Notes: generated from the letters alone by a model not told the origin. Positions 5,124 to 24,806 are shown, numbered from the stretch's first letter. The stretch is 64,000 nt of DNA from an uncultured Pseudomonadota bacterium (GCA_963837035.1 CAWIMH010000035.1:341770-405769); one strand, 5' to 3'. Made by a program: numbers and translations.

Positions 5124-5414
5124 TCATGGGAGCAGCCCGCATTCAAACATTTTGTTGGCGATCGGCGCTGCCACTCGATCGATGAAGGCCGCCCGCATCT
5201 GCGGATCGTCGCGCAAGAGTTGAATGGCTTCCTGTTCTCTCGGTGAATGCGGCTGGCCCCGCCGCTGCCACAACTGCTCGCACGAGGAATTCTGGTATTT
5301 TTGGACGACCTGGTCGGCGATCCGATCCATCACCGGATGCTGCTGCGCGCTGGCTACGCCCCCGGAGCCAAGCAGTGCGGACACAAAGGCCAATACGTAA
5401 ATACGCTTGTTCAT
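5124..5414 (-). CDS. small secreted protein, unknown function
   Basis: The internal Met start gives MNKRIYVLAFVSALLGSGGVASAQQ, a signal peptide. The mature protein is about 70 aa with 2 Cys. It overlaps the downstream gene by 19 nt on the same strand. Confidence 0.35.
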   Translation of the reverse strand: MNKRIYVLAFVSALLGSGGVASAQQHPVMDRIADQVVQKYQNSSCEQLWQRRGQPHSPREQEAIQLLRDDPQMRAAFIDRVAAPIANKMFECGLLP

Positions 5415-5512: not shown

Positions 5513-7138
5513 TTACTGGCCAGTCCCTTTGCTCGCCGCCTCCGCCTCCGCCATCTTTTTCGCCATCTCAGCTTTCAACGCGTCAAGGTTGAAACTAGCC
5601 CCCCGCTGCATCGGCGGGTAATCGAGGAAGGTCTTGATTTCTTTGGCCATCAACTGCTGGACGAACACAAAGCGCCAGAACTGGTACTTGAACCAATCGA
5701 AGTATTGCTGCGCACCGTCTTTCGTTCCATTGCCGGGCCAGCCCGTGCGCTCGAAGGGATCCAGGCGCAGGTTGGTGATGTAGGGCACGTCCGGATGGGT
5801 CTTATCCCCGAGCCAGCCATTGGGCTGGTCGATGAAACGGTACTTATAGTCGTCAATGCGCACCGCGCCGATTGTGCTTTCGCCGAGGTAGAAGATTTCG
5901 TGGCGCGCGGACGGCCCTTTGCCGGTGATCGCAGCCATCTGGTTATAGCCGTCCAGATGGTTCCTGTAGGTTCGGTCGCCGATCGTCTTACCCTTCAGCA
6001 ATTCCTGGGTGATGTTCGGATTGCCCGCCGCTGCCACGAAGGTCGGAAGCCAGTCGAGGCCGGAAAAGATGCCGTTCTGCACCGAGTCCGGGGGGACGTG
6101 GCCGGGCCAGCGAAGGAGCGTGGGAACGCGGAAACCGCCCTCGAGGACTGTTCCCTTGGATTGCGCAAACGGCGTCTGACCGCCATCGGGCCAGGTGAAA
6201 ACTTCCGTGCCGTTGTCAGTCGTGAAGACCACGATGGTGTTGTCGTCGACCCCCATGTCCTTGAGTTTCTTCATAACGAGGCCGACATCATCATCGATCT
6301 GGGCCATGCCGGCTTCCTCTTCCGACCAGCCATTCTCCGAGTTCCGCATCGCTTCGTATTTTGGGGAGAGATGCGTGACGATGTGCATGCGGGTCGGGTT
6401 GAGCCAGACGAAGAACGGTTTGCCGTCCTTTTGGGCCTTGTCCATAAACTTGATGGCGAGGTCGCGAATCTCGTCGTCCACGGTTTCCATCCGTTTCGGA
6501 TAGAGCGTGCCGGCATCCTCGATCTTCTGCTTGCCGATCCTGCCCCAGCGCGGCATCTCGGTGGGGTCATCCTTGTCAGTGGCCCAGCTATGAACCATGT
6601 TGCGCGGGCCGACGACATTCAACAGGTTCTGCGGATAGTTGGGGTGTGCCGGATCTTCCATCGCATCGAGGTGATACAAATAGCCGAAAAATTCGTCGAA
6701 GCCGTGGACGGTGGGCAGGAACTCATTGCGATCGCCAAGGTGATTCTTGCCGAACTGGCCCGTGGCATAGCCCATGGACTTAAGCACCGTGGCGATGGTC
6801 ACCGCTTCCGCCGGTATGCCGATCTTGGCACCAGCTTGGCCGACTGTGGTCATACCCGTGCGGATCGGGAGCTCGCCAGTGATGAAGTTCGCCCGACCCG
6901 CCGTACAGCTTGCCTCGGCGTAGTAGTCGGTGAACAGCATGCCCTCCTTGGCGATCTTGTCGAGGTTCGGCGTCCTGCCAGCCATCATGCCGCGATGATA
7001 GGCCCCGATATTCCACATGCCGATGTCGTCGCCCATGATCACGACGATGTTGGGTTTCTTCTCTTGCGCCTGCGCCCCGCGTGTGAGCGACAAACCGATG
7101 ATCGCGCAGATCGACAAGGCGACGCCGAAATGTCTCAT
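5513..7138 (-). CDS. arylsulfatase (type I sulfatase) with signal peptide
   Basis: Strong sulfatase hallmarks are present: KPNIVVIMGDDIG, the FGE-target motif S-C-T-A-G-R (the C-x-A-x-R variant of CxPxR) followed by ANFITG, GKNHLGD, and the C-terminal sulfatase domain. Starting at MRHFGVALSICAIIGLSLTRGAQA gives a signal peptide. The antisense 536-aa ORF (5705-7315) is rejected. Confidence 0.85.
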   Translation of the reverse strand: MRHFGVALSICAIIGLSLTRGAQAQEKKPNIVVIMGDDIGMWNIGAYHRGMMAGRTPNLDKIAKEGMLFTDYYAEASCTAGRANFITGELPIRTGMTTVGQAGAKIGIPAEAVTIATVLKSMGYATGQFGKNHLGDRNEFLPTVHGFDEFFGYLYHLDAMEDPAHPNYPQNLLNVVGPRNMVHSWATDKDDPTEMPRWGRIGKQKIEDAGTLYPKRMETVDDEIRDLAIKFMDKAQKDGKPFFVWLNPTRMHIVTHLSPKYEAMRNSENGWSEEEAGMAQIDDDVGLVMKKLKDMGVDDNTIVVFTTDNGTEVFTWPDGGQTPFAQSKGTVLEGGFRVPTLLRWPGHVPPDSVQNGIFSGLDWLPTFVAAAGNPNITQELLKGKTIGDRTYRNHLDGYNQMAAITGKGPSARHEIFYLGESTIGAVRIDDYKYRFIDQPNGWLGDKTHPDVPYITNLRLDPFERTGWPGNGTKDGAQQYFDWFKYQFWRFVFVQQLMAKEIKTFLDYPPMQRGASFNLDALKAEMAKKMAEAEAASKGTGQ

Positions 7139-7190
7139 TTTCCAACTAGGCATTGGAACTCGCCTCCCGGATTCAGTGTGTCCGCCTTTC

Positions 7191-7955
7191 TCAATTGGCG
7201 GCGGCTGCCGCGCTCTGCTGAACGCCAAAGCTCACCAGCTTTTGGTCGAGTCCATTGGCCCAGTAGTCGATGGCGTTTTCAGCATCACCCCACTGAAACA
7301 CGTCGACGTTCTTGATCGACGTGCCGCCAACTCGTTTGTCCGCCCAGGCCGCAAGCAATTGTCCGGAAACCGAATCGTTCAGCTTCCCGGCACCCTGCGC
7401 CGAACCTACGAATGCGTACGTGCCAGTCGCCGCCATCTTTATCGCACTGAGCACGCGGGCTTGTGGTACCACCACCGAAATGCTTCGCAGTACCGGGACG
7501 GCTGAGGTGGCGTCGGTCAAAGCGACGGAGAGTTTCATCACACCCGGACCAGGTTGATCCACGATCGTGAAGTTCTTCCCGAGATCCTTCACAAGGGTGC
7601 TGTACATATAGTTGCAAAGCGCCTGTTGATCAGCGGCGGAGACCTTGGAATCGTCCGCGGCCCAAAAAGTGACCGGAGCGATCATGATCTTGTTGTAGCT
7701 GGACCAGGTCACATTCGGGTTGACGTACCGGAGCATAGCCTTTTGGTCGGACCCTTCCGCAGGCGGCGTCATCAGAGAGTAGTCATTGCCGAGAAACCCG
7801 CTGGGCGCCGGCGGAGCCGGGGTTTCGCCTTGCGCTCGCTGGATAAGGTTCGGCTCGGGAGCCGCGGTTTGTGAACATCCGGCCAATAGGAATCCGGCAA
7901 GTAGAATAGGCACCAGACCGCTGGCAAACTTCATGCTTGCGATTTTGTGATTCAT
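7191..7955 (-). CDS. DUF3313-type lipoprotein
   Basis: Start at MNHKIASMKFASGLVPILLAGFLLAGC, giving a lipobox L-A-G-C. A GGAGG ribosome-binding site lies 5 nt upstream of this ATG. The size and composition fit the DUF3313 lipoprotein family. Confidence 0.5.
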   Translation of the reverse strand: MNHKIASMKFASGLVPILLAGFLLAGCSQTAAPEPNLIQRAQGETPAPPAPSGFLGNDYSLMTPPAEGSDQKAMLRYVNPNVTWSSYNKIMIAPVTFWAADDSKVSAADQQALCNYMYSTLVKDLGKNFTIVDQPGPGVMKLSVALTDATSAVPVLRSISVVVPQARVLSAIKMAATGTYAFVGSAQGAGKLNDSVSGQLLAAWADKRVGGTSIKNVDVFQWGDAENAIDYWANGLDQKLVSFGVQQSAAAAAN

Positions 7956-8047: not shown

Positions 8048-9445
8048 CTAAAGTTGTGGGCCTTCCTGGAGTGTCCAGCCATTCGCGGACAGCTGCTGGC
8101 GCGCGAGCGGTGTCATTTTGCCGGTGATCCAAAGAACGCGATGGTGCAAGGCCATCAACTCGGGAGCGGTCGCAAAACCTGCTATTCGCTGCGTCCACGA
8201 CACATAGTCGACGGGAGCCGGCATTATCGTCGCGCCATTCTGATCGCGCGCAACCAGCACACCGGGTACCCGAATCCTGGTAATCGGACTCCTCTGCCGG
8301 TTCCATTGGTCGAGCATGCTAAGTGACGTAACCATGAAACGCGCCTGGTACTCCGTCATCATGCTGCCCAGCGCAACCGCCGCAGCACGGCGTCCCGGAA
8401 TGTTGCCGAGAGCGTCGAGATCTCTGACCGCGGAAACCTGCAGACTCAACGGAATCGCGCTATTACTGATGAAAGAGGTGATCTCCTCCTGCGACAGCCC
8501 GATGTTCTTCAGTTTCTTCTGAACGAGAAGGATGAGGTCGGCTTTCGGTGTCTGATAGACGAGATCGTCGCTGAACTCGACGCCCGTGATGATCATCGAC
8601 GCGGGTACCGCCATCATTGCGACATCAACCGTCATACGAGCCGAGAACATCACCCACGCAACTTTGTTCAGCCTCTTGGTGAGAATCGGATCGGAAGTGT
8701 AGGGATCGACGTGTAACTTCCGAGCGAGGTCGCGACGGACCTGATCGTAGCCCAAGGCCGTTAGCGTAGCAGTGCCAGTCTCACCGGCGGCTTTTCCACT
8801 CCCGGGAGAACTCGTAGCCGCCGAGTAGATCTCTCCCGCCCCGAGACTCACCCGGCCAAACAATTCGCCGACTCCGCTGGGCAACCCGGTCACGGTGTCC
8901 ATCGGATGTCTTACCATGTTTGCAGCGTCTGTTACCGGGCGCTCGGCACTCGAGGCCAGCGCTTTGGCGAATACGCCGGTCTCACTAATGTTTTCCAACT
9001 GCGCGATCGCTGGTATCTCGGACAGGCGTATCTTCAGCATATCGAGACTTTCGATGTAGTAGGTGCCGGCGTCGCCGCGAAATACCGATGCGTCGGCTAC
9101 TATGGTGTATTGGCCCATCGCACCGTTGGTCGCCACTTGTTGCCCCACCTGATAGCCGGGACCGGATTGTATGTCCGGCGACAGAAGTTGACTAAGGTCC
9201 ACAATCGGCGGTTCCTCGAATTGACCGGTGGTTGCCCAACCCGAGGGCGGCTGAGCCGGTTGCGGTGCAACACTCTCGCCCTGAGCTGCGCCGGACGGTG
9301 GCGGCGCCGGATTACCGGTCTGTGCTTGCGCCATTTGAGGCGTCGCGGGTGCGGACGATTGGGCGCACCCCGCCAGCAGTAATCCGGCGATCAAAAAAGC
9401 CCGTGTTGCGATCCATCCTTTCAGACACCTCGAACTGAGACCCAT
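8048..9445 (-). CDS. lipoprotein, unknown function (465 aa)
   Basis: MGLSSRCLKGWIATRAFLIAGLLLAGC gives a lipobox. It is followed by a Pro/Ala/Gln-rich linker and then a globular domain. It is the first gene of the minus-strand cluster that ends with the FadL-like gene. Confidence 0.5.
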   Translation of the reverse strand: MGLSSRCLKGWIATRAFLIAGLLLAGCAQSSAPATPQMAQAQTGNPAPPPSGAAQGESVAPQPAQPPSGWATTGQFEEPPIVDLSQLLSPDIQSGPGYQVGQQVATNGAMGQYTIVADASVFRGDAGTYYIESLDMLKIRLSEIPAIAQLENISETGVFAKALASSAERPVTDAANMVRHPMDTVTGLPSGVGELFGRVSLGAGEIYSAATSSPGSGKAAGETGTATLTALGYDQVRRDLARKLHVDPYTSDPILTKRLNKVAWVMFSARMTVDVAMMAVPASMIITGVEFSDDLVYQTPKADLILLVQKKLKNIGLSQEEITSFISNSAIPLSLQVSAVRDLDALGNIPGRRAAAVALGSMMTEYQARFMVTSLSMLDQWNRQRSPITRIRVPGVLVARDQNGATIMPAPVDYVSWTQRIAGFATAPELMALHHRVLWITGKMTPLARQQLSANGWTLQEGPQL

Positions 9446-9602: not shown

Positions 9603-9620
9603 ATTGTACGTTGGTACAAT
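9603..9620. promoter_or_regulatory. 18-bp palindromic candidate operator ATTGTACgTTGGTACAAT in the divergent intergenic region
   Basis: A perfect 7-bp inverted repeat, ATTGTAC/GTACAAT, around a 4-nt spacer. It lies about 160 nt upstream of the lipoprotein-sulfatase operon (minus strand) and 90 nt upstream of the receiver gene (plus strand). A 17/18-identical copy occurs at 17933-17950. Confidence 0.4.
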
Positions 9621-9709: not shown

Positions 9710-10096
9710 TTGTGGGAAAAGTCGACGGCCACAGTAATTGTGGTAGATGACGACGTATCCATCCGCCGCGCCCTGGGACGTCAGTTGCAGATTCTGGGCT
9801 TCGACGTATTGGTCTTTCAGAGCGCGGAAGAGCTGCTGGTCTCCGAGCTACCTATTAATAACACTTGCCTACTGTTGGACGTCTATATGCCGGGAATGAG
9901 CGGGATTGAGCTCTGCCAGAGTTTGGTGGCGTCAGGACGGCACTTGCCGACGATCCTGATGAGCGGCCGTGACGACGAGGCAACGAGAGAAATCATGCGC
10001 CAAGCAAAACCGATCGCCGGCTTATTCAAGCCATTCGATCAGAAAACCCTGCTACAAGCGATCCGAAGGGCATTGCGCAATTTGCGAAAGAGCTGA
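9710..10096 (+). CDS. stand-alone response-regulator receiver protein (CheY-like)
   Basis: 128 aa. It has the VVDDD acidic pocket, the LLLDVYMPGMSG phospho-acceptor region and a conserved K near the C-terminus. There is no output domain. Confidence 0.75.
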   Translation: MWEKSTATVIVVDDDVSIRRALGRQLQILGFDVLVFQSAEELLVSELPINNTCLLLDVYMPGMSGIELCQSLVASGRHLPTILMSGRDDEATREIMRQAKPIAGLFKPFDQKTLLQAIRRALRNLRKS

Positions 10097-10237
10097 GCGG
10101 CGGGAAGCCCGCTCACGCCAAGCAACCGAGTCTTTTTGAAATTTTGATTATTCTTGAGTTTGCTCCAAGGCACCCATTGCGCGGCGGTAGCATCGATACG
10201 ACTTTGGCGATAATCTTCGCCATCAGAAAGGGGGCGT

Positions 10238-11675
10238 ATGATGTCCACGGCCCCGCATTCCGCGGGCCAATCCCGGCCTGTTGCTGGGTATTGCCAACTG
10301 GCCGGGTACACGCATTCTCTGATGCGACCAGCAACAGCTGCAAAACTGACCCCACCACTTCTCCGTGCTCGAAGCTTGCGTGGAATCCGTCCACGGCGCG
10401 AAATTGAGCGCTTCGAATTGCTGTTGGACGAATTGTCGGCGGTGATGACCCGGACTCCTGCCGATGCGAGTCGACGGCGAAATCGAAACCTGGCTGGGCA
10501 AGATTTGCCAGGCCTTGGGGTTGGATCGCAGCGGCATCTATGAGCGTGATTCGCCGCTCGATCCCGTGCGCACTACGCATACCTGGAAGCGGCCAAATAT
10601 TCCTCCATTTCCTCGGGATTTCGATCCGGAGAAGTATCTAAAGACGACTACCGACTGGGTTATGGCGGGTAATCAGATTGTGTTCTCGTCGCCGAGCGGA
10701 ATTCCGGCCGAGCTGGCAGGATGCAAGACGCTTCGTCGAGCGATATCGGCCCCAAGGCTTCCGCCGTCATTCCGATGTGGGCCGGAAATCGAGTGATCGG
10801 CGCGGCGAGCTTTGGCAAGTTCCGCGCAGCGCGGGAATGGCCGCCAAAACTCCTCGAACAACTCACTCTCGCGGTCAGGCTCTTCGGCAGCGCGATTGAA
10901 CGCAAGCAGGCAGAGGCGGAGCGCCGCGCAACTCTTGCGCAGCTGCGGACCGCGTCGCGTCGCAACATGATGAGCGAACTCGTCGCCTCACTTTCACATG
11001 AAATCAACCAGCCTCTGGGTGCGATCCTGAGCAACCTGGGAGGTCTCGCGCGGTTGCTCTCGCGGAAAAATCCGGAACCCGCGATGGCCCTTGCTGCGGT
11101 CAACAACGCGATTGAGGATACCAAACGGGCTGCTGAAATCATTCGACGAATCCGTTTCATGTTCAAGGCTCATCCTGAACACAAAACAGCAGTCAGTATT
11201 GGCGCGTTGGCTGACGAAGTGGTGAACTTGATCGCTAGCGAGGCAGCGCTCCGTAAAGTTGAAGTGCTCCTGGAAGTTTCGCCCGCCGTCAAGCGCGTAA
11301 TCGGAGATCGCATTCAGCTGCAGCAATGCTTACTGAATCTGCTCATGAATGGCTTTCGACGCGATCACCGAGAGCAAGTCCGACCAGCGCGAGATAACGA
11401 TCAAAATCGCCCCGGAGAAGCCCGGATGGGTCGGCTTCAGCGTGAGCGATACCGGTGGTGGCATCGACCCTTCGGTCGCCGACCGACTATTCGAACCGTT
11501 TGTTACAACCAAAAGCAATGGTATGGGATTGGGCTTGCTCGTGACCCGATCGATCGTCGAGAATCACGGCGGCAAGATCTGGGCGACGCCGAATCCCGAT
11601 GGCGGAACCACGTTCACCTTCACGCTTCCTTTGGTGCAAAGAAAGCAAGCCAGCGCATCGAAGCGCGGCAATTGA
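10238..11675 (+). pseudogene. sensor histidine kinase (GAF-like, HisKA, HATPase_c) interrupted by at least 3 frameshifts
   Basis: Three overlapping ORFs in different frames read as one protein: an N-terminal region, a GAF-like region (IPMWAGNRVIGAASFGKF), HisKA (LSHEINQPL), and HATPase_c split at LLNLLMNG|AFDAITES. The HATPase_c split is explained by one extra g (aatggcttt versus expected aatgctttc). Confidence 0.6.
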
Positions 11676-11686
11676 CGGCCTGCCGG

Positions 11687-12330
11687 TTAATTTGACCCGC
11701 CTTGAGCGAATCGCGTGGGCGTGGAATTCTCAAGGATTCCAGACATGCGGACGAGACCGGCGAGCGAGTCGGCCTTCATTTTGATCATTACGCGTTCGCG
11801 ATGTGCCTTAACCGTACGCTCCGTGGTTCCCAACTCGGCTCCCACCTGCTTGTTCAACAGACCCCTCGTGATTAGAGCGAAGACTTCGCGTTCGCGAGGG
11901 GTAAGCGCATCCAAGCGACTTTCGAGCTCGATCCGCTGGGCATGCTCGGCACGCCGCTTACGCGATTAGTTCGGCGCCACGAATTATCGAACTCACGAAA
12001 GCTTCTTCGTCGAGCGGCTTTTCAAGAAAATCCACCGCGCCCTTTCTCATCGCATGCATTCCGAGCGACAGATCGCCGTGGCCGCTGATGAACACGATTG
12101 ATGCGAATGGAACCGTGCGGTACAGCTTCGCCTGAAGCTGCAACCCGTTCATTCTCGGCAGAAAATTGTCCACCACGATACAATCAAAGGCGCTTGCGTC
12201 AGTGACATTGAGAAATTCTTCAGCAGAGTCTATGTGGGGCGACCTGAAAGCCTGCAGCACCGAGCTGGAAGACCAACGCTTGCGCGCAACCGCTCGTCGT
12301 CTTCAACGAGCGCCACCTTGATGGCCTCGT
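11687..12330 (-). pseudogene. FixJ/NarL-type response regulator (receiver plus LuxR-type HTH) with 2 frameshifts
   Basis: The receiver N-terminus (IKVALVEDDERLRASV), the receiver core (DCIVVDNFLPRMNGLQL...SGHGD...KGAVDFLEKP) and the LuxR HTH ([12 protein letters not shown]...[19 protein letters not shown]) lie in three different frames. Removing one base near 11958 restores ...[27 protein letters not shown]. Confidence 0.6.
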
Positions 12331-12840
12331 TGGTCGCGCGAGCGTTAGCATCCTGGACGATTCTTTTTCCCGCCGCGTCGAAATCGAACAGGTGTGTTTG
12401 CAGTGACGCATCGGCACCGCCCCCCGAGACATTCGCCGCTGCGAGAGTTGGCAAAACTATAGCCATCGCTCACGGAATCGAGCAAATGGACCTTGGTTCT
12501 CTGCGGCACAAATTTGGACTCCGGTACAAAGGCTCGCACATAGGATGTCGGCATATCGTGGCCTGATTGCATGCTTGGCGCGATGGGACAGATCTCGATA
12601 CTTCTTCGCTGTGACTGTTATACCAGTGGATTTCGAAAATCATTTTTCAAGAGCTGACCGTTGAGCAAGAAGAAAAGGCCCCGGAGCGAGCAGCCGACCT
12701 CCAGTGGAAACAGACGGAAACCGGAGCTGATGCAACGGCCCGGGTGCTACGACAGGCGCATCCTGAACTCCGGATCCTCGCTTGGCTGTTCCCCGTAGCG
12801 ATGCTCGATCATCCTGGCCGTCGCACTCTCGGGACGATCG

Positions 12841-15108
12841 ATGCGTGAGCCCATTCGTCCCGTAATTGCTTCGAAACAATCCCCCGTCCTTAGAGCGAAG
12901 TTCGTGGGATCCGCTGACTGCGCGACCTGTCACGAGCGCGAGAATTCCCTATGGCGTGGCTCGCATCATCAATTGGCGATGCAACCTGCTGCGAATTCCA
13001 CGGTCTTGGGCGATTTCAACAACGCGAGCTTCAGCAACGATGGGATCACTTCAACCTTTTTTCGAAGGGACTCCAAGTTCATGGTCCGCACCGACGGTCC
13101 CGACGGAGCCCTTCAGGGATTACGAAATCAAGTACACGTTTGGCGTCTCACCACTGCAGCAATATCTGATCGCCATGCCGGGCGGACGCTTGCAGGCGCT
13201 AGGAATCGCATGGGACAGCCGCCGGCGCGAGCACGGTGGTCAGCGTTGGTTCTTTCTCTATCCAGGCCAGAGAATCTCGTTTTTACATCCGTTGCACTGG
13301 ACCGGTATCGATCAGACCTGGAACTTCATGTGTGCGGACTGCCATTCGACCAACGTGCGCAAGAACTACGAACCGCGGACGCGTACTTATGCCACCAGCT
13401 ATGCCGAGATCGACGTAGCCTGCGAGGCTTGTCACGGTCCCGGATCGAATCACGACTCGTGGGCGCGGAAGCAAGGCGATTGGCGAAACTTTCGAGATCC
13501 AACCACGGACTGACTATCGCGCTTGACGAACGCAACGGAGTGTCGTGGCCGGTCGACTCCGCCGGCAACACCGTCCACCGTAGCAGGCCGCGCGAATCTG
13601 AACGGGAAATCCAGATGTGCGCGCGATGCCATTCGCGTCGCGGTGAGATTTACGAAGAATACGTCCACGGCCAACCTGTCGGCGACGACTATCGCGTCGC
13701 GCTGCTCGATCAAGACCTCTATTTTCCTGACGGCCAGATCAAGGGAGAAGTTTATGAATACGGCTCATTCGTCCAGAGCAGGATGTTCCATGCTGGGGTA
13801 ACCTGCAGCGATTGCCACGAACCACATAGCCTCAAACTCCGAGCCGATGGCAATAATGTCTGTCTGCAATGCCATTCCGCTCCAAAGTACGATTCAGCGA
13901 AGCATCACTTCCACCAAAAGGGGATCGCCCGGCGCGCAATGCGTCGAATGTCATATGCCGACGCGGACCTACATGGTCATTGATGCGCGACATGATCACA
14001 GCCTCCGCATTCCTCGTCCCGACCTGTCAGTGAAGCTCGGTACGCCCAACGCGTGCACCAATTGCCACAAGGATAAGTCCGCCCAATGGGCCTCGGATTC
14101 CGTGGACAAATGGTACGGGGGCGTACCAGTCGGCTTTCAGCATTTCGCTGTGGCGCTTGACTCGGGAATCCAGCAGGCGCCGGGTGCCCGGCAATCGCTC
14201 ACCGACCTCCTCGCCGATCGCGATCAGCCTGCAATCGCCCGCGCCACCGCCCTTTCAATGCTCGCCGCCTACGCTCCTTATCCGGCCGATGCTACCGTTC
14301 GCGCCGGAATCACGGACGCTTCGCCACTCGTTAGACGTGCCGCCGCTCGAGCGCTTTCGAACTCCGACCTCGCCACCGGCGCATCGATTCTGGCGCCGCT
14401 TCTGAGCGATCCATGCGCTCGGTTCGAATAGAACTTGCCGAGGTGCTCGCCGGCGTGTCTGCGGACATGCTCCCCACCAACGTCGCACAGTCGTTGGATC
14501 GCGCTACAGATGAGTACATCGCCGCTCAGGAATTGAACACCGATCGACCCGAAGCACATATGAATCTGGGGTTGCTCTACGCGCGGGAAAAGCACCTAGA
14601 CCAGGCCGAGGCGGAGCTCAAAAGCGCGTTGTCACTCGACCCAGCTTTTGCACCCGCGGCGGTCAACCTCGCCGACCTTTATCGCGCGCAGAACCGGGAT
14701 GCTGAAGGTGAACAGATCCTCGATGATGCTATCAATCGTTCGCCCAACGACGGGTCACTGCAACACGCGCTCGGTCTGTTGATGGTGCGCCAGAAGCAGG
14801 GCCGAAAAGCTTTAGCTCTATTCGCTGCCGCCGCACAACTCGATCCCGCGAACGCGAGATACGCATATGTATACGCAGTCGCTCTGAATGACACCGGCCA
14901 GACCAGCACTGCAATTGAAACACTCGAGCGCAATCTCAAACTGCATCCTTATGATCGCGATTCACTCACCGCACTGGTTAGCCTTTGCGATCGGGTTGGC
15001 AAATCACTGGAGGCGCTCAGCTATGCCCAACGCCTCTATGAACTTGATCCGGAGGACTTGCAAGTGCGGCAGATGCTCAAAGCGCTGAACGGCCAGATTC
15101 ACAACTGA
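12841..15108 (+). pseudogene. multiheme cytochrome c domain fused to C-terminal TPR repeats, at least 4 frameshifts
   Basis: Several CxxCH heme motifs are present (CATCH, CADCH, CEACH, CARCH, CSDCH, CLQCH, CVECH, CTNCH). They are spread over 3 frames (ORFs 12841-13983, 12866-13513, 13847-14431). These are followed by TPR repeats in ORF 14413-15108. The architecture matches the cytochrome-c-family-plus-TPR proteins common in Acidobacteria and Deltaproteobacteria. Confidence 0.55.
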
Positions 15109-15167
15109 TCGCACCGTATGCATCGAACGAATTCGCAGTCGGTCTGACCAGGTCCGCGGAGGACGCT

Positions 15168-15743
15168 TCAACTCCGCCCGTTCCCTACGGTAATGTTCGA
15201 GTGGCGCCCCGAAACACCGCCAGTTTTGGGGGCTCCGAAAAAGAGTCTCCATAGCTCCCCCTCGCCCATGCGCCCGCTGATCTCGAACAACGCGAAGTAT
15301 AGTGCAAACACTAGAGTGATTCCCAAGACCCAAGCGAGAAGTCGATACATATTCGCCTGGGCAATCACGTATTGTGCCGCCGCGTCGAAATTATGCACCT
15401 TATGTCTGGCTTCCAGAAGTCGTTCCAAAATGCCCAGCAACAGTGTGATAGCGCCATAAATCAGGGCCTTAACTGCGACTGCGACAATCCGGCGATAGTG
15501 CTCAAGGTGGCGGGCGAGCGGCGTCTCATCGAGTATAAGCACCGCTTTTGCGGCAAACAGAGCTCCGATCACAGCCTTGGGAAATGCCGTTACCTCGATG
15601 GAGAAGGTTGCAAGGACCAGCCTTATGATCCAAAGCAAGAGCAGGAAGCCGACCAGGAAAAATACAAATACCGGCCAAGCCGCAACGAACTCACGGTAGA
15701 GCCATCTGCCGACCGCGCGAATTGTGCGCAGGACACTGTCCAA
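15168..15743 (-). CDS. integral membrane protein, unknown function
   Basis: 191 aa with about 4 predicted TM helices. It lies immediately downstream of, and co-oriented with, sulfatase paralog 2. Confidence 0.4.
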   Translation of the reverse strand: MDSVLRTIRAVGRWLYREFVAAWPVFVFFLVGFLLLLWIIRLVLATFSIEVTAFPKAVIGALFAAKAVLILDETPLARHLEHYRRIVAVAVKALIYGAITLLLGILERLLEARHKVHNFDAAAQYVIAQANMYRLLAWVLGITLVFALYFALFEISGRMGEGELWRLFFGAPKTGGVSGRHSNITVGNGRS

Positions 15744-15777
15744 CGTGTTTCCTCTTAATGCGCGACTAAAACCGCCG

Positions 15778-17280
15778 CTAGTGGCTACCGCCCTGCTGTT
15801 GAAGCTTTTCCATCACCTGGTCGATGGTAAAGCTGGCTGCTTTCTGGCGCGGCGGGTACTCCACGAACGTCTTCAGAAAATTTGCCACGAGGCTCTGGGC
15901 GGGCAGAAACATGTAGATGTGATTGATTACCCAATCCCAATAGGTATTCGAAGTAATATCTGCGCGCTCGTACGGGTCCGTGCGCAGATTGAAAAGCTTT
16001 GGAAACCGTAAGGGCACAAGTGGCTCCTGCCAGATTTGCAGCGTGCCTGGTACCCGCTGCTCCATGAAAATTAACTTCCAATTGTCATAGCGCAAGGCCA
16101 TCAGGTCGCCATCATCGGAGAAGTAGAAGTATTCGATGCGCGGACTTGTTTCCTTGCCCCTGAAGTGCGGCAGATAATTGTAACCGTCGAGATGCACCTT
16201 AAAACTCTTCTTGCCCGCCTGATGCCCCTTTAGCAGTTTCTCCTTGATACCGGGCTCGCCCGCGGCAGCCAGCAGAGTGGGGAGCCAGTCCAGATGACTG
16301 ATTATTTCGTTCGATACGGTTCCGGGTTTGATTACACCCGGCCAGCGGACCATGCATGGCACGCGAAATGCGCCTTCCCAGTTGGAATTTTTCTCGTTCC
16401 GGAAGGGTGTCATTCCGGCGTCTGGCCAGGAGTTCATGTGCGGACCGTTGTCAGTGCTGTACATGACGACGGTGTTGTCGGCGATGCCGAGGTCATCGAG
16501 CTTTTTGAGGAGTTTGCCGACGATCTGGTCGTGCTCGATCATGACGTCATGATATTCGGACTGCCAGCGACCCGCCTGGCCCACGATTTCGGGCTTGGCG
16601 TGGGTGCGGAAGTGCATATGGGAGGTGTTGAACCAAACGAAGAAGGGCAGGTTCGCTTTCACCTGCCGCTCGACAAAATCCTCAGTTTTAGCGATGACCT
16701 CGTCGTCGATCGTGCGCATCCGTTCTTTGCCCAGAGGGCCTGTGTCGACAATCAACTGAGTTCCGTCGGGATTGGCCTTGCAGTCAAGCACACCGCGCGG
16801 GCCGAAGTTTTTCTTGAAGTTGGGATAGTCGGAGGCGGGCGGATAGTCGGGGAGCTCCGGCTCCTCCATAGCGTTAAGGTGATAGAGGAAGCCGAAGAAC
16901 TCGTCGAAGCCGTGGCTGGTCGGCAGGAATTCGTCCCTGTCTCCGAAATGGTTCTTGCCGAACTGCCCGGTAGCGTAGCCAAGCGGCTTGAGCAATTCAG
17001 CGATGGTCGGATCCTCCGGGCGCAGACCCAGGTCAGCTCCGGGCACTCCGACCTTGCTTAATCCAGTCCGAAAGACGCTCTGACCGGTAATGAACGCCGA
17101 TCGGCCAGCGGTGCAACTTTGCTCGCCGTAGCTGTCGGTGAACAGGATCCCCTCCGTCGCGACTCGATCGATATTTGGCGTCCGATAGCCCATCATCCCT
17201 TTCGTGAAGATGCTGAGGTTCGCGGTGCCGATGTCGTCACCCCAGATGATCAGAATGTTCGGGTTTTTGTTCGCCGCCAT
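15778..17280 (-). CDS. arylsulfatase paralog (type I sulfatase) lacking a signal peptide
   Basis: It has NPNILIIWGDDIG, SCTAGRSAFITG (the same C-x-A-x-R variant), GKNHFGD and a sulfatase C-terminal domain. It is about 60% identical by eye to the 5513-7138 sulfatase over the N-terminal 140 aa. Neither possible start (MKWYLARETQ... at 17376 or MAANKNP at 17280) gives a hydrophobic signal peptide. Confidence 0.8.
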   Translation of the reverse strand: MAANKNPNILIIWGDDIGTANLSIFTKGMMGYRTPNIDRVATEGILFTDSYGEQSCTAGRSAFITGQSVFRTGLSKVGVPGADLGLRPEDPTIAELLKPLGYATGQFGKNHFGDRDEFLPTSHGFDEFFGFLYHLNAMEEPELPDYPPASDYPNFKKNFGPRGVLDCKANPDGTQLIVDTGPLGKERMRTIDDEVIAKTEDFVERQVKANLPFFVWFNTSHMHFRTHAKPEIVGQAGRWQSEYHDVMIEHDQIVGKLLKKLDDLGIADNTVVMYSTDNGPHMNSWPDAGMTPFRNEKNSNWEGAFRVPCMVRWPGVIKPGTVSNEIISHLDWLPTLLAAAGEPGIKEKLLKGHQAGKKSFKVHLDGYNYLPHFRGKETSPRIEYFYFSDDGDLMALRYDNWKLIFMEQRVPGTLQIWQEPLVPLRFPKLFNLRTDPYERADITSNTYWDWVINHIYMFLPAQSLVANFLKTFVEYPPRQKAASFTIDQVMEKLQQQGGSH

Positions 17281-17372
17281 TGCCTTTCCCTTTTTTAGAA
17301 GCCTTTTCGGCTTGCATTGATCAAGATTGTTAAAATTCGAGGCGGATTGTGTTTCCCTTGCAAGATACCACT

Positions 17373-17762
17373 TCAATTACAGCCGTGACTGTTTGCGGTC
17401 TTGTAACAATTTTTGCCGCTGGGGCTCTTATATACGCCCTTGCCATTCTTGGTCTTGGCTTCTCCTCCCGCGCTCGTGTGCATCGTAATAACTCCATACT
17501 GATTCTTCTGTGAATGCCAAGCGTTGCCAGTATTGCGGTTATATACCCCGGCTTGTTCCCCGTTGTTGCACTCGACGCGGCCATATGCGGTTGTGTAGCA
17601 ACTAGCAAACGCGTCGGTAGAAAACAGCACCACTGTGAATATTCGCAGAGCGATTCTTTTTACTATCCTATGCCGAGATTTTCGATTTGGATCTCGAGTC
17701 AGCCTGCGCTGCAGCGAGGTTTTCAAAACACAAACAAACGTGGTCGTCAGAGGCACACACAA
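17373..17762 (-). CDS. small secreted Cys-containing protein (about 76-aa mature), unknown function
   Basis: The ORF ends 1 nt before the sulfatase-2 ORF. The internal segment KRIALRIFTVVLFSTDAFA|S looks like a signal peptide. The mature part has Cys pairs at both termini (CYTTAYGRVEC ... CYKTANSHGC). The true start is uncertain; a TTG or GTG start is possible. Confidence 0.35.
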   Translation of the reverse strand: MCVPLTTTFVCVLKTSLQRRLTRDPNRKSRHRIVKRIALRIFTVVLFSTDAFASCYTTAYGRVECNNGEQAGVYNRNTGNAWHSQKNQYGVITMHTSAGGEAKTKNGKGVYKSPSGKNCYKTANSHGCN

Positions 17763-17932
17763 CTTTTGCTGATAGCCTTCATCTAAAAACTTCAGTTGGA
17801 GGTAGCCGGCGATCGTCGGTGACCTATTTTCTGCATGGTCGCTTCGTGGTCCGAGCTAGCGCCAGCGAATGGTTCGGTAGGTACGCTGCTGCGCCCTGCT
17901 CCGAGACTGCTCCATTCGTATCAGCAATAACT

Positions 17933-17950
17933 ATTGTACCTTGGTACAAT
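17933..17950. promoter_or_regulatory. second copy of palindromic candidate operator ATTGTACcTTGGTACAAT (extended 9-bp arms TATTGTACC/GGTACAATA)
   Basis: 17/18 identical to the site at 9603-9620. It lies about 170 nt upstream of the minus-strand Cys-peptide/sulfatase-2 module. Confidence 0.4.
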
Positions 17951-18370
17951 AGGGGGCTTTGGTTGACCTGACTAAGCTAAACTCGCGATTCGGTAGGCAG
18001 AAGCCATCGGTGTGAGCGTGAATCATGCAGCGGCGGGTTGCCGACGGAAGCATCCGTCAACAATCGGGACTGCTCGGGCAGAGTACGGACCGCGGCGTCT
18101 CTTGGCTGTCGCACCTTTCGTTGCGCCCGGTTCTCTAGATCATGCGCCGCACCAAAACCGCTCGTCCGACCAGTTTGCAAGCATCCACGCGTGAGCCCAA
18201 TAGTTCGCTGCGCGCATCTTGAGCGAGTTTCGGCCGACCTTCGCTGATTTTGTTGATGTTTTTATTTTGCAAGCCCGCGCTTCATCGGTTTCCGTCAAAC
18301 TTATTAATCCGAATCTGAAGATTGCTGCGCGTAGCGGTAATATGAGCGAACCACCCTCTGGAAGGGCGGC

Positions 18371-18483
18371 GGTGGTTTATGCCATGCGGTGGTTTATGCC
18401 ATGCGGTGGTTTATGCCATGCGGTGGTTTATGCCATGCGGTGGTTTATGCCATGCGGTGGTTTATGCCATGCGGTGGTTTATG
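18371..18483. repeat. 17-bp tandem repeat (GGTGGTTTATGCCATGC) x about 6.6, perfect copies
   Basis: Read directly from the sequence. The unit length is not a multiple of 3. The overlapping 213-aa ORF (18219-18860) with the repeated peptide AVVYAMRWFMPCGGLCH is a repeat artifact. Confidence 0.9.
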
Positions 18484-19166
18484 GAAGACCTGGATCGTCC
18501 GCATCACCGGCTGGTGGCAAATCCAAGTCGGGCCGGTCGGCTATGCGAAGGACCTCCATCAGCGCTTTGAACGGCTCAATGAATAGCGGCAGCGGTTTCG
18601 GTCCAGGTCGAGGTGCAACCCTGACCTCGCCCGACTTGTACCCGTTGATCGCGGCTTTATGGGCGAGAACGCCAACCGCGGCTCGGGTGCTTTGCGGGTC
18701 GCGCAGCATTTCCGCGGAAAGCGCAGTCGGCTGGTTGAGATTGCGAAAGCGTCCGTCCGGGTTTCGCTTCGACATGACCATTACTCGGCTGGAGTTTTGG
18801 CCCCTTTTCCACGGCACTCCTAGTACAGTATACAGAATTATACGGTGTTACGCAATCTAGTTTGGAGAAAACCTCACCTCTCGCGCCAAGAGGGGCGCCG
18901 ACCAAGACCATAATGGTGGCGGGGCTTTTAGTCTCAAGAAATGTCCACTTCAACGGCAGGGGGCAGTTCAGATTTGTTGGGGCGGCAGCCAATACGCTGG
19001 TGGTGCTCGCGTTGATGCGTAGTCTGAAGCAGCCGACGCGACCGATACCACCTAGTGCCTACAAACCTTCCCTACTCAGGGAAGCGAAGATTAGCGCGCC
19101 TGCCAACATTGACCTGCCTACTACTACACAGACAAAACAACAATAACGTCTGTTTACAATCACCCG

Positions 19167-21233
19167 TTACTTGACGAGACCCGTGAATCCTGCAACAAAC
19201 AATGTCGTCAGGATCCAACCAAGACCGATCTCAACCCAAAGCCAGAAACGGAGAGCGCGGCCCCATCCGCCGATATTGGGATTAGGTAGCCACGAGTCTT
19301 TTTGGTGAATATTGATTATCGGCAAAAAAGTGTCGAGTGAGTATGCAAGCGAATTAAATGATTGATAGTATGGTGGTAGGCGTCTTTCGGGTGTGAAGGA
19401 CGAATACGCGTCAGCGGAACAAGGCGAGACAAACCCACACTTGTATCCGCATCGGAAGAGCAGAGCCCCGATCGCTACGACTACCAAACTCCACGGCAGT
19501 GCCCACCAGGGTTCGTAACCATAACGGATAGTTAGCCAAGAAATAAAAAGCCTACAGCGCTCCCACACGCCCAGTTTCACTAGGTTCCAGCGAGAGTTTT
19601 GCAATCCGATGAGGACTTGATATGCCCCTTCGCCCGCTTTCCGCAAGGTTTCTGCCAGTTGGTTGTAGGGTTCGGGTGCGAACTTCGGCTGCTGCAAGGC
19701 AAGCCACGCTAAGCGACTTTTAGCGTCAATAGGACCGCCGGAAATTCGATCATAGGAGAACCCATCTAGATCGAGCTGACCTGGTTTGGGCCAGCTGCTT
19801 TGATCGTCAGCCAGAGAACCGACAGAAGCATCGTTCAGATCGAGCTGCAGCACTGTTCCTTCTTTCGCCTTGATATTTTGCCAGGAGAAAATCCCTTTTA
19901 CTGTGGTTCGCTCGATACTAAGACCACTAAGTGACCGGCCTCCGAACTCCACGTTACTAATAGTTAAATCGTGACTCACAATGGCATCGTTTGCCGTTAA
20001 AACACCGAGCACATAAAGGCCTCCACCCAAGAGCATGCTTTTATCCGTGAAGATTCCGCTCGCCTCCAGGTCACGAATAGTGCCTCCCAGAATAAATAAC
20101 CCGCCACCGAGGTGCGCTCCCGCGAGTCTCATCAGTCCGTCCGTGACTGATAATCCGGTCAGCTGAACGTCTCCCCCTGTCTTGCTATTGTCGAAGTCGA
20201 ACGCTTCACCATCCTTTGGTGAGCTTTTTATAACCATCTGGTTCGCGTATAAACCAAGAGCTATATTGGCGCCAACAAAATGGATCTCGCCTTCGGCGTG
20301 AAAACCATTCAGAAAGACACTTCCTTCGACTTTGGCTCTATCGCCGATTAACGCGTAGTGATGGGGATTCTTGATTGTGCCTTCTTTTATACCTAGCTCG
20401 CCGCCAATTGTTGCGCCGATCAAGGAAATGTAACCGTCCGCGCGGATGCCAGCGAGCCTAATATTTCCCCCAACTTTCGCGCTTTCTAGCATTAACACGA
20501 GCGAATCTACTTGACGTGATTTCGCGCCGCTACGAATCGTTGCACCCATACCCTCAACGTTCCCATTGATCTCTGCAAGTTGAAGGTCCACTACGTCATC
20601 ACTTCGGAATCCTTCATCGAGAAAAAGGCTACCGCGAACCTTTAATCCCTGCGCCGCGATGCCGTTAACCCTACTACCCTTAAGATCGAGAACGTCAACT
20701 TGAGCCCATGGCATCATAATTTGATCGTCGAAATAGGAGTGGCGGATCCCTATGGAAAAAGGGAGGTTCGCAAAATTGAGCAGCAGATTTCCCGTGATTC
20801 GCGCATAGATGAGTCGTATTCCGACCGGGTCAACGCGAGACGCTGCTTTGGGATCGAGCGCGAGCCAGCGAATCAATGAAGCTCGAACCGTGCGGTCCTT
20901 AGGCCAGGTGCCGCCAGTTTCAACGTTATTGAGCGGATCGGAATTGGCTTCGCTTGCTTCACAATGAGCGATGCTTTCGCCTCCATTGACACTTTGGAGC
21001 GCGACTGATTCCAGTAGTCTTACTTCACATTTGGTTAGGTCTCGAAAGCCTGCTCGCCTAGCAAGCGTGATCAACGCGCTCCTTTCTGCTGAATCATCCG
21101 CCCTAGCCAGCCAGGCAGGAAAAAGTGACCGACCTGTTACAAGGAGCACGACCAATATTGTCGCGTAGACCGTGATTCGATGCAGCGATATGTATTCGCT
21201 ATGTTTCAGCATGACCCGAAAGATACGGGGCAA
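19167..21233 (-). CDS. large membrane protein: N-terminal TM anchor, central beta-solenoid-like Gly/Leu repeat region, C-terminal multi-TM domain, unknown function
   Basis: 688 aa. An N-terminal hydrophobic helix (ITVYATILVVLLVTG) is followed by many degenerate repeats of the type G..L.L.G..I.G.L. and a hydrophobic C-terminal region (WALPWSLVVVAIGALLF ... WLWVEIGLGWILTTLFVAGF). The local GC content is lower than the surroundings. Confidence 0.5.
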   Translation of the reverse strand: MPRIFRVMLKHSEYISLHRITVYATILVVLLVTGRSLFPAWLARADDSAERSALITLARRAGFRDLTKCEVRLLESVALQSVNGGESIAHCEASEANSDPLNNVETGGTWPKDRTVRASLIRWLALDPKAASRVDPVGIRLIYARITGNLLLNFANLPFSIGIRHSYFDDQIMMPWAQVDVLDLKGSRVNGIAAQGLKVRGSLFLDEGFRSDDVVDLQLAEINGNVEGMGATIRSGAKSRQVDSLVLMLESAKVGGNIRLAGIRADGYISLIGATIGGELGIKEGTIKNPHHYALIGDRAKVEGSVFLNGFHAEGEIHFVGANIALGLYANQMVIKSSPKDGEAFDFDNSKTGGDVQLTGLSVTDGLMRLAGAHLGGGLFILGGTIRDLEASGIFTDKSMLLGGGLYVLGVLTANDAIVSHDLTISNVEFGGRSLSGLSIERTTVKGIFSWQNIKAKEGTVLQLDLNDASVGSLADDQSSWPKPGQLDLDGFSYDRISGGPIDAKSRLAWLALQQPKFAPEPYNQLAETLRKAGEGAYQVLIGLQNSRWNLVKLGVWERCRLFISWLTIRYGYEPWWALPWSLVVVAIGALLFRCGYKCGFVSPCSADAYSSFTPERRLPPYYQSFNSLAYSLDTFLPIINIHQKDSWLPNPNIGGWGRALRFWLWVEIGLGWILTTLFVAGFTGLVK

Positions 21234-23978: not shown

Positions 23979-24806
23979 TCAGATTCCGCTAAGCGCTCGC
24001 CAGCCCATCTCCAACGCGATCAAGATTAGAATTGCGACGAAGGCTATCCGCAGGTGCTGGACCCTGAGCAGCGGGAGAACGCGGCTGCCGGCGAGCGCCC
24101 CCACCGTCACCCCGACCGCGACCGGTGCCGCGATCGTCGTTGAGACGTCGCCGCGGGACAGGAAGACGAGCGCACCTGCGCCGGCGGTGACACCAATCAT
24201 AAAGTTGCTCGTGGCGCTGGAGACCTTTAGCGGGATGTGCATCACCTGGTCCATGGCGATCACTTTGAGTGCGCCCGACCCGATTCCCAGCAGCCCCGAC
24301 ATCACCCCCGCAATCAGCATAAGGACTCCGCCGTAGCGTAGATTAGTAACTTCGTAATGCTGCAACCGTCCTGATTCATCCGGGATCTCGCCCGCCAAGC
24401 GCAGCTTGCGAGCTAGTACTCCGCCCTCAGCCAGGAGCGTCTCGTCATGCTTCATCAGCGAGAAATATGCGGACTGGAGCATCATCAGAGCGAAAAGCCC
24501 TTCGAGCACATACGTAGGCACCCGTCCGGCCAGATATGCGCCCACGATCGCGCCGGTTACAGTCGCGCATTCGAGCACCATCGCCACCTTGAGATTGGTC
24601 CAGCCGTCACGGACAAAGGCGACACTGGCGCCGGCGCTGGTCGCAACGACCGAGATTAGGCTGGCACCGACAGCGATGCGCATCGGTATCTTAGCTAAAA
24701 CGATTAGTGCCGGCACGATGAACACGCCTCCACCGAGACCGGAGATAGCCCCGACGAAGCCCGCGCCGATAGCAAGTAGTAGTAACCCGGAGAGGATCTC
24801 AATCAT
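23979..24806 (-). CDS. TSUP (TauE/SafE) family sulfite/anion exporter
   Basis: 275 aa with 7-8 TM helices and duplicated Gly-rich motifs (GLGGGVFIVP and GIGSGALKV), characteristic of TauE/SafE. Confidence 0.75.
   Translation of the reverse strand: MIEILSGLLLLAIGAGFVGAISGLGGGVFIVPALIVLAKIPMRIAVGASLISVVATSAGASVAFVRDGWTNLKVAMVLECATVTGAIVGAYLAGRVPTYVLEGLFALMMLQSAYFSLMKHDETLLAEGGVLARKLRLAGEIPDESGRLQHYEVTNLRYGGVLMLIAGVMSGLLGIGSGALKVIAMDQVMHIPLKVSSATSNFMIGVTAGAGALVFLSRGDVSTTIAAPVAVGVTVGALAGSRVLPLLRVQHLRIAFVAILILIALEMGWRALSGI

Follow-up and report, generated by a model that had tools for sequence, protein, structure and literature searches.

The arylsulfatase AtsA of Pseudomonas aeruginosa is the classical precedent for a cytoplasmic formylglycine sulfatase, and PDB entry 1HDH, which we take to be this enzyme (AtsA/PAS), is an S1 sulfatase of the Cys type that lacks a signal peptide. 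In Escherichia coli, the yidF-yidK cluster encodes a signal-less sulfatase, YidJ (starting with MKRPNFLFVMTD, MKRPNFLF), beside the transporter YidK and the small inner-membrane proteins YidG, YidH, and YidI. Operons of Paraburkholderia, Cupriavidus, Cyanobium/Synechococcus, and others combine a gene annotated simply as "arylsulfatase" with genes for a formylglycine-generating enzyme (FGE) and an SBF/BASS transporter. Here we analyze a stretch of 64,000 nucleotides (nt) from an uncultured Pseudomonadota bacterium (GCA_963837035.1, CAWIMH010000035.1:341770-405769), all of which was searched and which we call the window. On its minus strand, between positions 15168 and 17952, lie a candidate operator, a gene for a small cysteine-containing protein of a secreted family, a gene for a predicted sulfatase without a signal peptide, and a gene for a membrane protein with four predicted transmembrane segments (4-TM protein). 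The source names of the homologues (Candidatus Binataceae, Candidatus Binatus, and older "Deltaproteobacteria bacterium" labels of metagenome-assembled genomes) suggest that the host belongs with the Binataceae. An earlier note, made from the sequence of the window, had singled out the three genes as a possible peptide/sulfatase/membrane-protein module. The coordinates of all features are given in Table 1.

The protein encoded by the middle gene matches Pfam family PF00884 (Sulfatase) over residues 7 to 341 (E value, 1.9e-49) and Sulfatase_C (E value, 4.2e-08), and 75 PDB sulfatase sequences match it, the best being 7AJ0 (E value, 1.2e-49). Residues 55 to 66, SCTAGRSAFITG, contain C/S-x-P/A-x-R followed by xxx-(L/I)-T-G, in the variant CTAGR; the core sulfatase motif is given as CX[P/A]XR (PMC2459300). 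The metal and catalytic residues are also present, with WGDDIG, GKNHFG, and STDNGP lining up with 7AJ0 and human ARSA, so that the full sulfatase core with a C-x-A-x-R motif claimed in the earlier note is borne out. Based on these matches, we assign the gene to the type I (S1) sulfatases that depend on formylglycine; both conversion of Cys56 and hydrolysis of sulfate esters are predicted.

The start site of this gene decides how it relates to the small open reading frame (ORF) before it. Mechanically, the sulfatase ORF has 532 codons and opens at TTG 17376, and the limits of the small ORF (129 codons) were set in the same way. The best 120 homologues listed are 491 to 503 amino acids (aa) long, begin with M-A/T-x-x-K-x-P-N, and span 92 to 94% of the 532-codon query, which is everything from MAANKNPN on. 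A purine-rich ribosome-binding site, AAGGGAAAGG, lies immediately 5' of ATG 17280, and in relatives, in-frame stops sit 5 to 13 codons upstream of the conserved ATG. TTG 17376 is the start of the longest ORF only and arises from the AAT-TGA (Asn-stop) end of the small ORF, whose TGA it overlaps. Because of the homologue lengths and the upstream stops in relatives, we place the start at ATG 17280. The spacer that this leaves is about 80% conserved in three related loci (L084 to L086) but with indels of 5, 1, and 3 nt. Taken together, the homologue lengths, the upstream stops, and the spacer indels indicate that the true gap is 92 nt and that the small ORF and the sulfatase are not translationally coupled. 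The earlier view that the sulfatase gene begins 1 nt downstream of the small ORF and abuts it translationally is therefore abandoned.

The absence of an export signal, which the earlier note had also claimed, was judged from a scan for hydrophobic segments and from inspection of the N terminus for motifs. No hydrophobic segment is found in the whole sulfatase or in the 32 in-frame codons upstream of it, and no RR (Tat) motif is visible in its N terminus, MAANKNPNILII. A signal peptide hidden behind a missed upstream start was looked for and rejected: the 32 upstream codons specify hydrophilic residues, and in relatives stop codons break up the extension. This suggests that the sulfatase is cytoplasmic. 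We consider it very improbable that the enzyme is instead exported or attached to the membrane nonclassically through the 4-TM protein so as to act outside the cytoplasm. The tight pairing of the two genes would fit such a route, and the signal-peptide-like extension encoded in about 17 orthologous loci indicates that the fold can function outside the cytoplasm. However, the sulfatase itself has no signal, Tat motif, or hydrophobic segment, its signal-less orthologues are encoded beside cytoplasmic FGE and importer genes, and we know of no precedent for such an export.

Compared with the described systems, the enzyme has near relatives and distant ones. The sulfatases of the Paraburkholderia, Cupriavidus, and Cyanobium/Synechococcus operons belong to the same family: they are 69 to 81% identical to that of the window, have 496 to 503 aa and CTAGR, and are mostly signal-less. 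These operons differ in having an adjacent maturase gene plus an SBF transporter, HAD hydrolase, or DUF1622 gene, whereas the lineage of the window carries genes for the 4-TM and small secreted proteins instead, with no maturase gene in the 64 kb. The yidF-yidK cluster follows a similar logic, with an importer or membrane proteins next to an intracellular sulfatase, but the YidJ motif is CTPAR. 1HDH, whose chain aligns from its residue 2, has a CxPxR motif, is distant (E value, 1.7e-18, N-terminal part only), and comes from another gene neighborhood. The closest solved structure is PsFucS1 of Pseudoalteromonas (7AJ0), which is aligned over residues 4 to 462 and also has a nonproline motif, CTSSR, but is distant, marine, and fucoidan active and has about 45 additional residues at its N terminus. 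PsFucS1 is placed in sulfatase subfamily S1_13 (PMC8484680).

A scan of one genome per species yielded 592 relatives of the sulfatase. The best 80 of these, 67 to 85% identical, come from Cyanobacteria, Chloroflexota, Burkholderiales, methanotrophic Alphaproteobacteria, Actinomycetota, Planctomycetota, Verrucomicrobiota, and others. Adding three close relatives from metagenomes gives 83 loci (L001 to L083), for which neighbors were counted by clustering the flanking ORFs and then checking them against Pfam. The family is about 70% identical across many phyla and has CTAGR in all 83 loci. An FGE gene (PF03781; E value, 1.8e-85) occurs within 8 kb in 37 loci and is directly adjacent on the same strand in 23, and a radical-SAM/SPASM (anSME-type) maturase gene occurs in 9 to 10 (adjacent in 7). 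SBF/BASS transporter genes are found in 26 loci (immediately downstream of the sulfatase gene in 11), HAD hydrolase genes in 17, and DUF1622 genes in 17. The operons typically have the order FGE-sulfatase-SBF in Paraburkholderia and Cupriavidus and sulfatase-FGE-DUF1622-SBF in Cyanobium. Twenty-one of 24 neighboring FGEs lack an N-terminal hydrophobic segment. A signal-peptide-like sulfatase extension is present in only about 17 family loci, so that signal-less members are the majority, and just 2 of the loci with the extension have an FGE gene nearby.

These neighborhoods suggest that signal-less members of the family usually come with a cytoplasmic maturase and an importer, and the frequent presence of an SBF/BASS gene beside signal-less sulfatase and FGE or anSME genes points to intracellular desulfation of an imported organic sulfate ester. 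The earlier note had pointed out that a type I sulfatase in the cytoplasm would need a formylglycine-generating system there; the idea that its maturation is a special problem is not supported. Judging from the 37 loci with an FGE gene, whose products mostly lack a hydrophobic N terminus, and the approximately 10 with a radical-SAM/SPASM gene, a cytoplasmic maturase is the normal state of the sulfatase's own family, and the puzzle of a stranded enzyme would dissolve. The same note was right that no formylglycine-generating system is visible in the window: a tblastn search of the 64 kb finds neither FGE nor anSME. A maturase of one or the other type would then be encoded elsewhere in the genome. 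CxAxR sulfatases have been attributed to the anaerobic maturase (PMC2459300), and yet FGE genes lie directly beside the strictly CTAGR (CxAxR) sulfatase gene in the 23 loci, and within 8 kb in the 37 loci, counted above. Because that source assigns CxAxR enzymes to the anaerobic maturase, this adjacency is a useful hint for annotation.

No characterized member of the sulfatase family was found in the searches made, and this could be taken to mean that the enzyme is a promiscuous hydrolase of the alkaline phosphatase superfamily, acting on phosphonate monoesters or phosphodiesters rather than primarily as a sulfatase. The NCBIfam matches to PehA and choline sulfatase point the same way but are weak and far below the cutoffs, and the best matches throughout are S1 sulfatases. 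The common FGE and anSME neighbors, although in keeping with a sulfatase, do not discriminate it from a formylglycine-using phosphonate monoester hydrolase. We regard a primary activity other than sulfate ester hydrolysis as quite unlikely. The sulfatase of the window is, in our assessment, an ordinary member of a large, well-defined, and uncharacterized family. Since no member has been characterized in the work found, this conserved cytoplasmic family, which travels with its own maturase and importer, marks a candidate route of organosulfate use. Organic sulfate esters are a major soil sulfur pool, and the Binatota are abundant but uncultured.

Directly downstream of the sulfatase gene, as the earlier note had observed, lies a gene whose 191-aa product has four hydrophobic segments. 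It has no match in Pfam or NCBIfam, and ten divergent members of its family likewise give no Pfam family. The protein database holds 482 relatives (at least 61% identical among those listed, some named Candidatus Binataceae), and a profile search of 1.8 billion representative proteins finds 804 clusters at an E value of ≤0.001. Comparison of the family with E. coli YidI, YidH (DUF202), and DUF1622 by hhalign gives probabilities of ≤0.5%, and the AlphaFold2 (AF2) model is poor (pLDDT, 52). A distant homologue (31% identity) in Cupriavidus sp. D384 (L018:14061-17393) adjoins a gene for a 684-aa protein about 7 kb from an FGE-sulfatase pair; by eye only, this 684-aa protein resembles an alkyl/aryl sulfatase of the metallo-beta-lactamase type (THSHVDHFGG).

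A sulfatase gene followed directly by a 4-TM gene occurs in the window, L001, L081 to L083, L085, L090, and L173 to L175, in surroundings that differ. The sulfatases of L001 (85% identity) and L081 to L083 (89 to 93%) are close to that of the window, and relatives that are ≤81% identical have no 4-TM gene but usually an SBF transporter or FGE gene in the downstream slot. Since the 4-TM gene occupies the slot held elsewhere by an importer, its product may have a transport or partner role at the membrane. The complete order of operator, small-protein (peptide) gene, sulfatase gene, and 4-TM gene is found in the window, L084 to L086, and L090 (collinear over 3 kb at 80% identity). The members also occur in other combinations. 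L001, L081 to L083, and L173 to L175 have the sulfatase and 4-TM genes without the peptide gene, and L108, L109, L121, and L123 to L126 have the peptide gene, about 600 nt that hold the palindrome, and the 4-TM gene, with no sulfatase gene between. The peptide gene is beside a gene for an 840-aa sulfatase in L084, L086, L087, and L091 to L095 and near a paralog-1-like sulfatase gene (see below) in L110 and L126, and most of 86 peptide loci have no sulfatase gene in their flanks, including the long loci L089, L107, L120, and L165. The 4-TM gene is also found beside an RND pump or other genes. The synteny is in keeping with the proposed module in that the order recurs in L084 to L086 and L090, but pairs of its members occur apart, and a fixed three-gene module is not supported. 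Because the pairs are found apart and many peptide loci have no sulfatase gene, the robust unit is the sulfatase gene with the 4-TM gene; the distribution suggests that the peptide gene is a frequent but optional neighbor within one clade.

The same distribution allows the peptide gene to be a mere neighbor. Under this explanation, a sulfatase/4-TM cassette landed behind an operator-controlled peptide gene in one sublineage, and the peptide is unrelated to sulfate esters. The loci that carry the cassette without the peptide gene and the many peptide loci without a flanking sulfatase gene favor it, as does the observation that the homology of L081 to the window starts only 6 nt before the sulfatase ATG. 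Set against this, the peptide gene adjoins sulfatase genes of three types (500 aa, 840 aa, and paralog-1-like) and also stands next to the 4-TM gene where no sulfatase gene intervenes, with the same operator in all cases. We consider a chance neighborhood possible but doubtful.

The 840-aa protein has a sulfatase domain, and its gene, with one for a membrane protein of 133 to 152 aa after it, lies next to, or divergent from, the peptide gene (L084:1382-3904, L087:2407-4926, and L091 to L095). In L091 to L095 and in L084 to L086, the operator is located between the 840-aa sulfatase gene and the peptide gene, an arrangement with no counterpart in the window. A 71-aa ORF divergent from the peptide gene in L084 to L086, also with no counterpart in the window, was set aside.

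The small ORF encodes a protein of a conserved family. Its search of the protein database gives 157 matches, the 120 listed having E values of 3e-44 to 6e-29 and typically 95 aa, with entries named Candidatus Binatus and Paraburkholderia among them, and a metagenome scan gives 425 stretches in which tblastn confirmed that the small protein is encoded. Members consist of a signal peptide ending in AFA, with S as the next residue, and a mature part of 76 aa in which two Cys pairs are invariant (C-x9-C near the mature N terminus and C-x8-C at the C terminus), as are many Gly, Asn, and Thr residues. The earlier description of a peptide of about 76 aa with Cys pairs at both ends is thus confirmed. 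The mature part differs from that of L084 by 18 synonymous and 8 nonsynonymous codon changes. That the small ORF is noncoding, an outcome for which we looked, is rejected on the conservation of the family and the bias of changes to the third codon position.

Neither profile nor structure places the family. The small ORF has no Pfam match above threshold; weak MORN (PF02493) matches appear in 44 of 100 family members (best E value, 0.0024), all below the Pfam threshold, and none in the copy from the window, which is therefore not assigned to PF02493. The AF2 model is all-beta, a meander of short hairpins with nine short strands (pLDDT, 66.6), and a fold search with it against the PDB gives nothing at an E value of ≤0.001. 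Among the weak matches, none of which is significant (best E value, 0.1), are extended beta-sheet proteins, for example the CPAP G-box, as well as one MORN protein (6t6q). Unlike MORN repeat proteins, the protein is small, secreted, and predicted to be closed by two disulfides. The profile and structure checks that the earlier note had suggested for this ORF consequently supply an all-beta model and weak MORN resemblance in relatives but no family or fold.

The claim that the peptide bears a signal holds for the family and less well for the copy in the window. The codon at the family start position is AAA in this copy (17658 to 17660) but ATG or GTG in about 80 of 82 related loci, and an Arg interrupts the hydrophobic core of the signal peptide of this copy. 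The AGGA ribosome-binding site upstream of the AAA is retained. Because of the AAA and the Arg, translation and export of the small protein are uncertain here. The gene may be a recent pseudogene, or the region may contain assembly errors, and the sulfatase and the 4-TM protein would then be the only products. The small protein also departs from the family at 4 of 43 highly conserved columns, a count that ranks among the top 5% for 100 members, and the nearby genes for a kinase, a GerE-type regulator, and a multiheme cytochrome/TPR protein are frameshifted relative to intact homologues. In contrast, the frame, the full length, and all four Cys residues are intact, the changes relative to L084 are largely synonymous, and the frame is open upstream to TTG 17726 and TTG 17762, which are possible alternative starts. 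Loss of the peptide in this one copy is a real possibility, though not the one we would expect.

Upstream of the peptide gene, the operator palindrome that the earlier note had located proves to be a perfect 10-2-10 inverted repeat. The window contains two palindrome sites, whereas chance alone would give 0.11. Sites of the form ATTGTACC-AA-GGTACAAT with at most 2 mismatches number 30 in 26 sources (25 related loci and the window), and they are nearly always identical; in every case the central AA falls on the coding strand of the gene that follows. Within the site, TTGTACC-NN-GGTACAA forms inverted heptamers with a 2-bp spacer. NarL/FixJ-type operators are 7-2-7 inverted repeats; the site has this arrangement and a GerE-type regulator gene nearby, which makes it a candidate operator, and its half-sites differ from the NarL consensus. 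A two-component system is encoded between the two sites of the window, and the same system occurs in most operator loci with enough flank on the relevant side (L081, L090, L108 to L111, and L123 to L126). A dimer of the GerE-type regulator would suit an inverted-heptamer site, and we infer from this that the system may act on the operator. Variant operators with half-site changes are present in L129, L139, L141, and L146. That of L141 is changed symmetrically in both half-sites (ATTGGACC-TT-GGTCCAAT), so that the palindrome is kept; this would fit a dimeric DNA-binding protein with shifted specificity, and a hairpin would behave likewise.

In loci of the L126 type, the 4-TM gene follows the operator directly, while in the window it could reach the 4-TM gene only by read-through across the peptide and sulfatase genes. 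In a simple scan, neither the 92-nt nor the 34-nt spacer shows a terminator-like site, and no Rfam family is found in positions 14500 to 19500 at an E value of ≤1. Between 10262 and 15108, the genes for the kinase, the FixJ/NarL-type regulator, and the multiheme cytochrome/TPR protein are split across several frames, while their homologues in L081, L082, and L090 each give a single high-scoring segment pair. The sulfatase gene, the 4-TM gene, and the 465-aa gene downstream of the second operator site are intact, unlike these, and the break points examined are not obvious homopolymers. Indel errors in the assembly could account for the broken frames, as could true decay of the regulatory system.

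Based on the family neighborhoods, the pairing with the 4-TM gene, and the operator, the reading that we favor, with moderate confidence, is that a cytoplasmic S1 sulfatase, the 4-TM protein, and the small secreted protein form an operator-controlled unit of a sulfate ester regulon. The intracellular sulfatase would hydrolyze an imported organic sulfate ester, and the 4-TM protein, whose gene is paired directly downstream in Binataceae-like soil bacteria, would take the membrane role filled by the SBF transporter in orthologous operons. The three genes would most likely be cotranscribed from a promoter under the conserved 22-bp palindromic operator, which the neighboring FixJ/NarL-type two-component system probably controls. 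The unit would be part of a larger regulon for sulfate ester utilization that spans the periplasm and the cytoplasm and includes an exported paralog, and the maturase encoded elsewhere would serve both sulfatases.

Several observations count against this reading. The peptide gene of the window has no canonical start codon and may not be expressed, the kinase and the GerE-type regulator are frameshifted, no promoter-like site is found near the operator by simple scan, and no maturase is found in the 64 kb searched. The 4-TM protein shows no resemblance to any transporter family and has a low-confidence model, and the trio has been seen in just a few contigs, all of them closely related. Six loci (L081 to L083 and L173 to L175) have the sulfatase and 4-TM genes with no operator upstream of the former and no peptide gene, L126-type loci have the peptide and 4-TM genes without the sulfatase gene, and most peptide homologues, including those of Paraburkholderia, have no flanking sulfatase gene; given such pairings, the peptide may be only a neighbor. 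A bolder version of the operator-controlled unit is that the three proteins are a new uptake-and-desulfation system of the Binataceae, in which the 4-TM protein replaces the SBF/BASS importer, the peptide is a periplasmic partner or sensor ligand, the FixJ/NarL system switches the genes on via the 22-bp palindrome, and the regulon covers the exported and cytoplasmic sulfatases; we think this rather unlikely. What is left after scrutiny is a lineage-specific Binataceae arrangement with two uncharacterized partner proteins and a sharply conserved operator, of modest specialist interest. For specialists, the lineage-specific partner membrane protein, the small secreted family, and an operator that appears tied to a two-component system are testable targets, and nothing observed contradicts the current understanding of sulfatases.

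Table 1. Features of the sulfatase region and of related sites in the window
Feature	Position	Strand	Basis or remark
Paralog 1, exported CTAGR sulfatase	5513-7153	-	Signal peptide MPSWKMRHFGVALSICAIIGLSLTRGAQA, followed by Q; 46% identical to the cytoplasmic sulfatase (sulfatase 2); also delimited as 5513-7228
Second copy of candidate operator, 1 mismatch	9603-9620	.	About 150 nt upstream of the 465-aa gene that heads a minus-strand run
Two-component system, candidate for operator binding	9710-12367	.	Between the two putatively operator-controlled units
Single-domain response regulator	9710-10093	+	Part of the two-component system
GAF/HisKA kinase, frameshifted	10262-11654	+	Part of the two-component system
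FixJ/NarL-type regulator with GerE domain, frameshifted	11690-12367	-	Part of the two-component system
4-TM membrane protein, 191 aa	15168-15743	-	TTG start 34 nt past the sulfatase stop; AGGA ribosome-binding site
Predicted S1 (formylglycine-type) sulfatase without signal peptide, 500 aa	15778-17280	-	Start at ATG 17280; Pfam, homologue lengths, hydrophobicity
CTAGR motif, Cys56 the expected formylglycine residue	17101-17115	-	Sequence
Noncoding spacer, 92 nt, small-ORF stop to sulfatase ATG	17281-17372	-	Alignment with relatives
Small ORF (mechanical limits, 129 codons)	17373-17762	-	Homology to the family of about 95 aa covers 17373-17660
Perfect 10-2-10 palindrome, candidate operator	17931-17952	.	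CTATTGTACC-AA-GGTACAATAG (minus-strand reading); about 270 nt before the family start position of the small gene

The exported paralog has, as previously described, a C-x-A-x-R motif and a clear signal peptide, which ends in AQA. The first residues of the cytoplasmic sulfatase align one for one with the mature end of this paralog. Because they differ by the signal peptide, the two paralogs most likely work in different compartments, in agreement with the earlier suggestion. An exported CTAGR enzyme must be modified before export and so needs a cytoplasmic maturase too. The gene that heads the run containing the paralog, 8048-9445(-), encodes a 465-aa protein without a Pfam family that is 75% identical to a 487-aa protein of L081; a homologous operator site precedes the gene for the latter, so that both have the same operator. 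The rest of the minus-strand run consists of genes for DUF3313, the exported paralog, a 96-aa secreted protein, DUF2092, a 341-aa ORF, a MetA-type channel, and a FadL channel, the last two being outer membrane channel genes. On a speculative note, the FadL, MetA-type, DUF2092, and DUF3313 genes near the exported paralog might hint at hydrophobic substrates.

The 96-aa protein, 5127-5414(-), encoded between the exported sulfatase and DUF2092, is a second small secreted Cys protein and is 80% identical to the product of L087:5479-5769. Homologues of it are encoded close to the peptide gene in L087, L101, L103, L105, L113, L159, and L168. About 420 nt beyond the operator of the trio, positions 18369-18483 hold 6.8 perfect tandem copies (100% matches) of a 17-nt unit, GCGGTGGTTTATGCCAT; this array gives rise to a spurious repetitive ORF, 18219-18860(+). 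Upstream of the operator region is a 688-aa ORF, 19167-21233(-), with no Pfam family, and about 6 kb further on from the operator region lies a gene of the TauE/SafE sulfite exporter family, 23979-24806(-).

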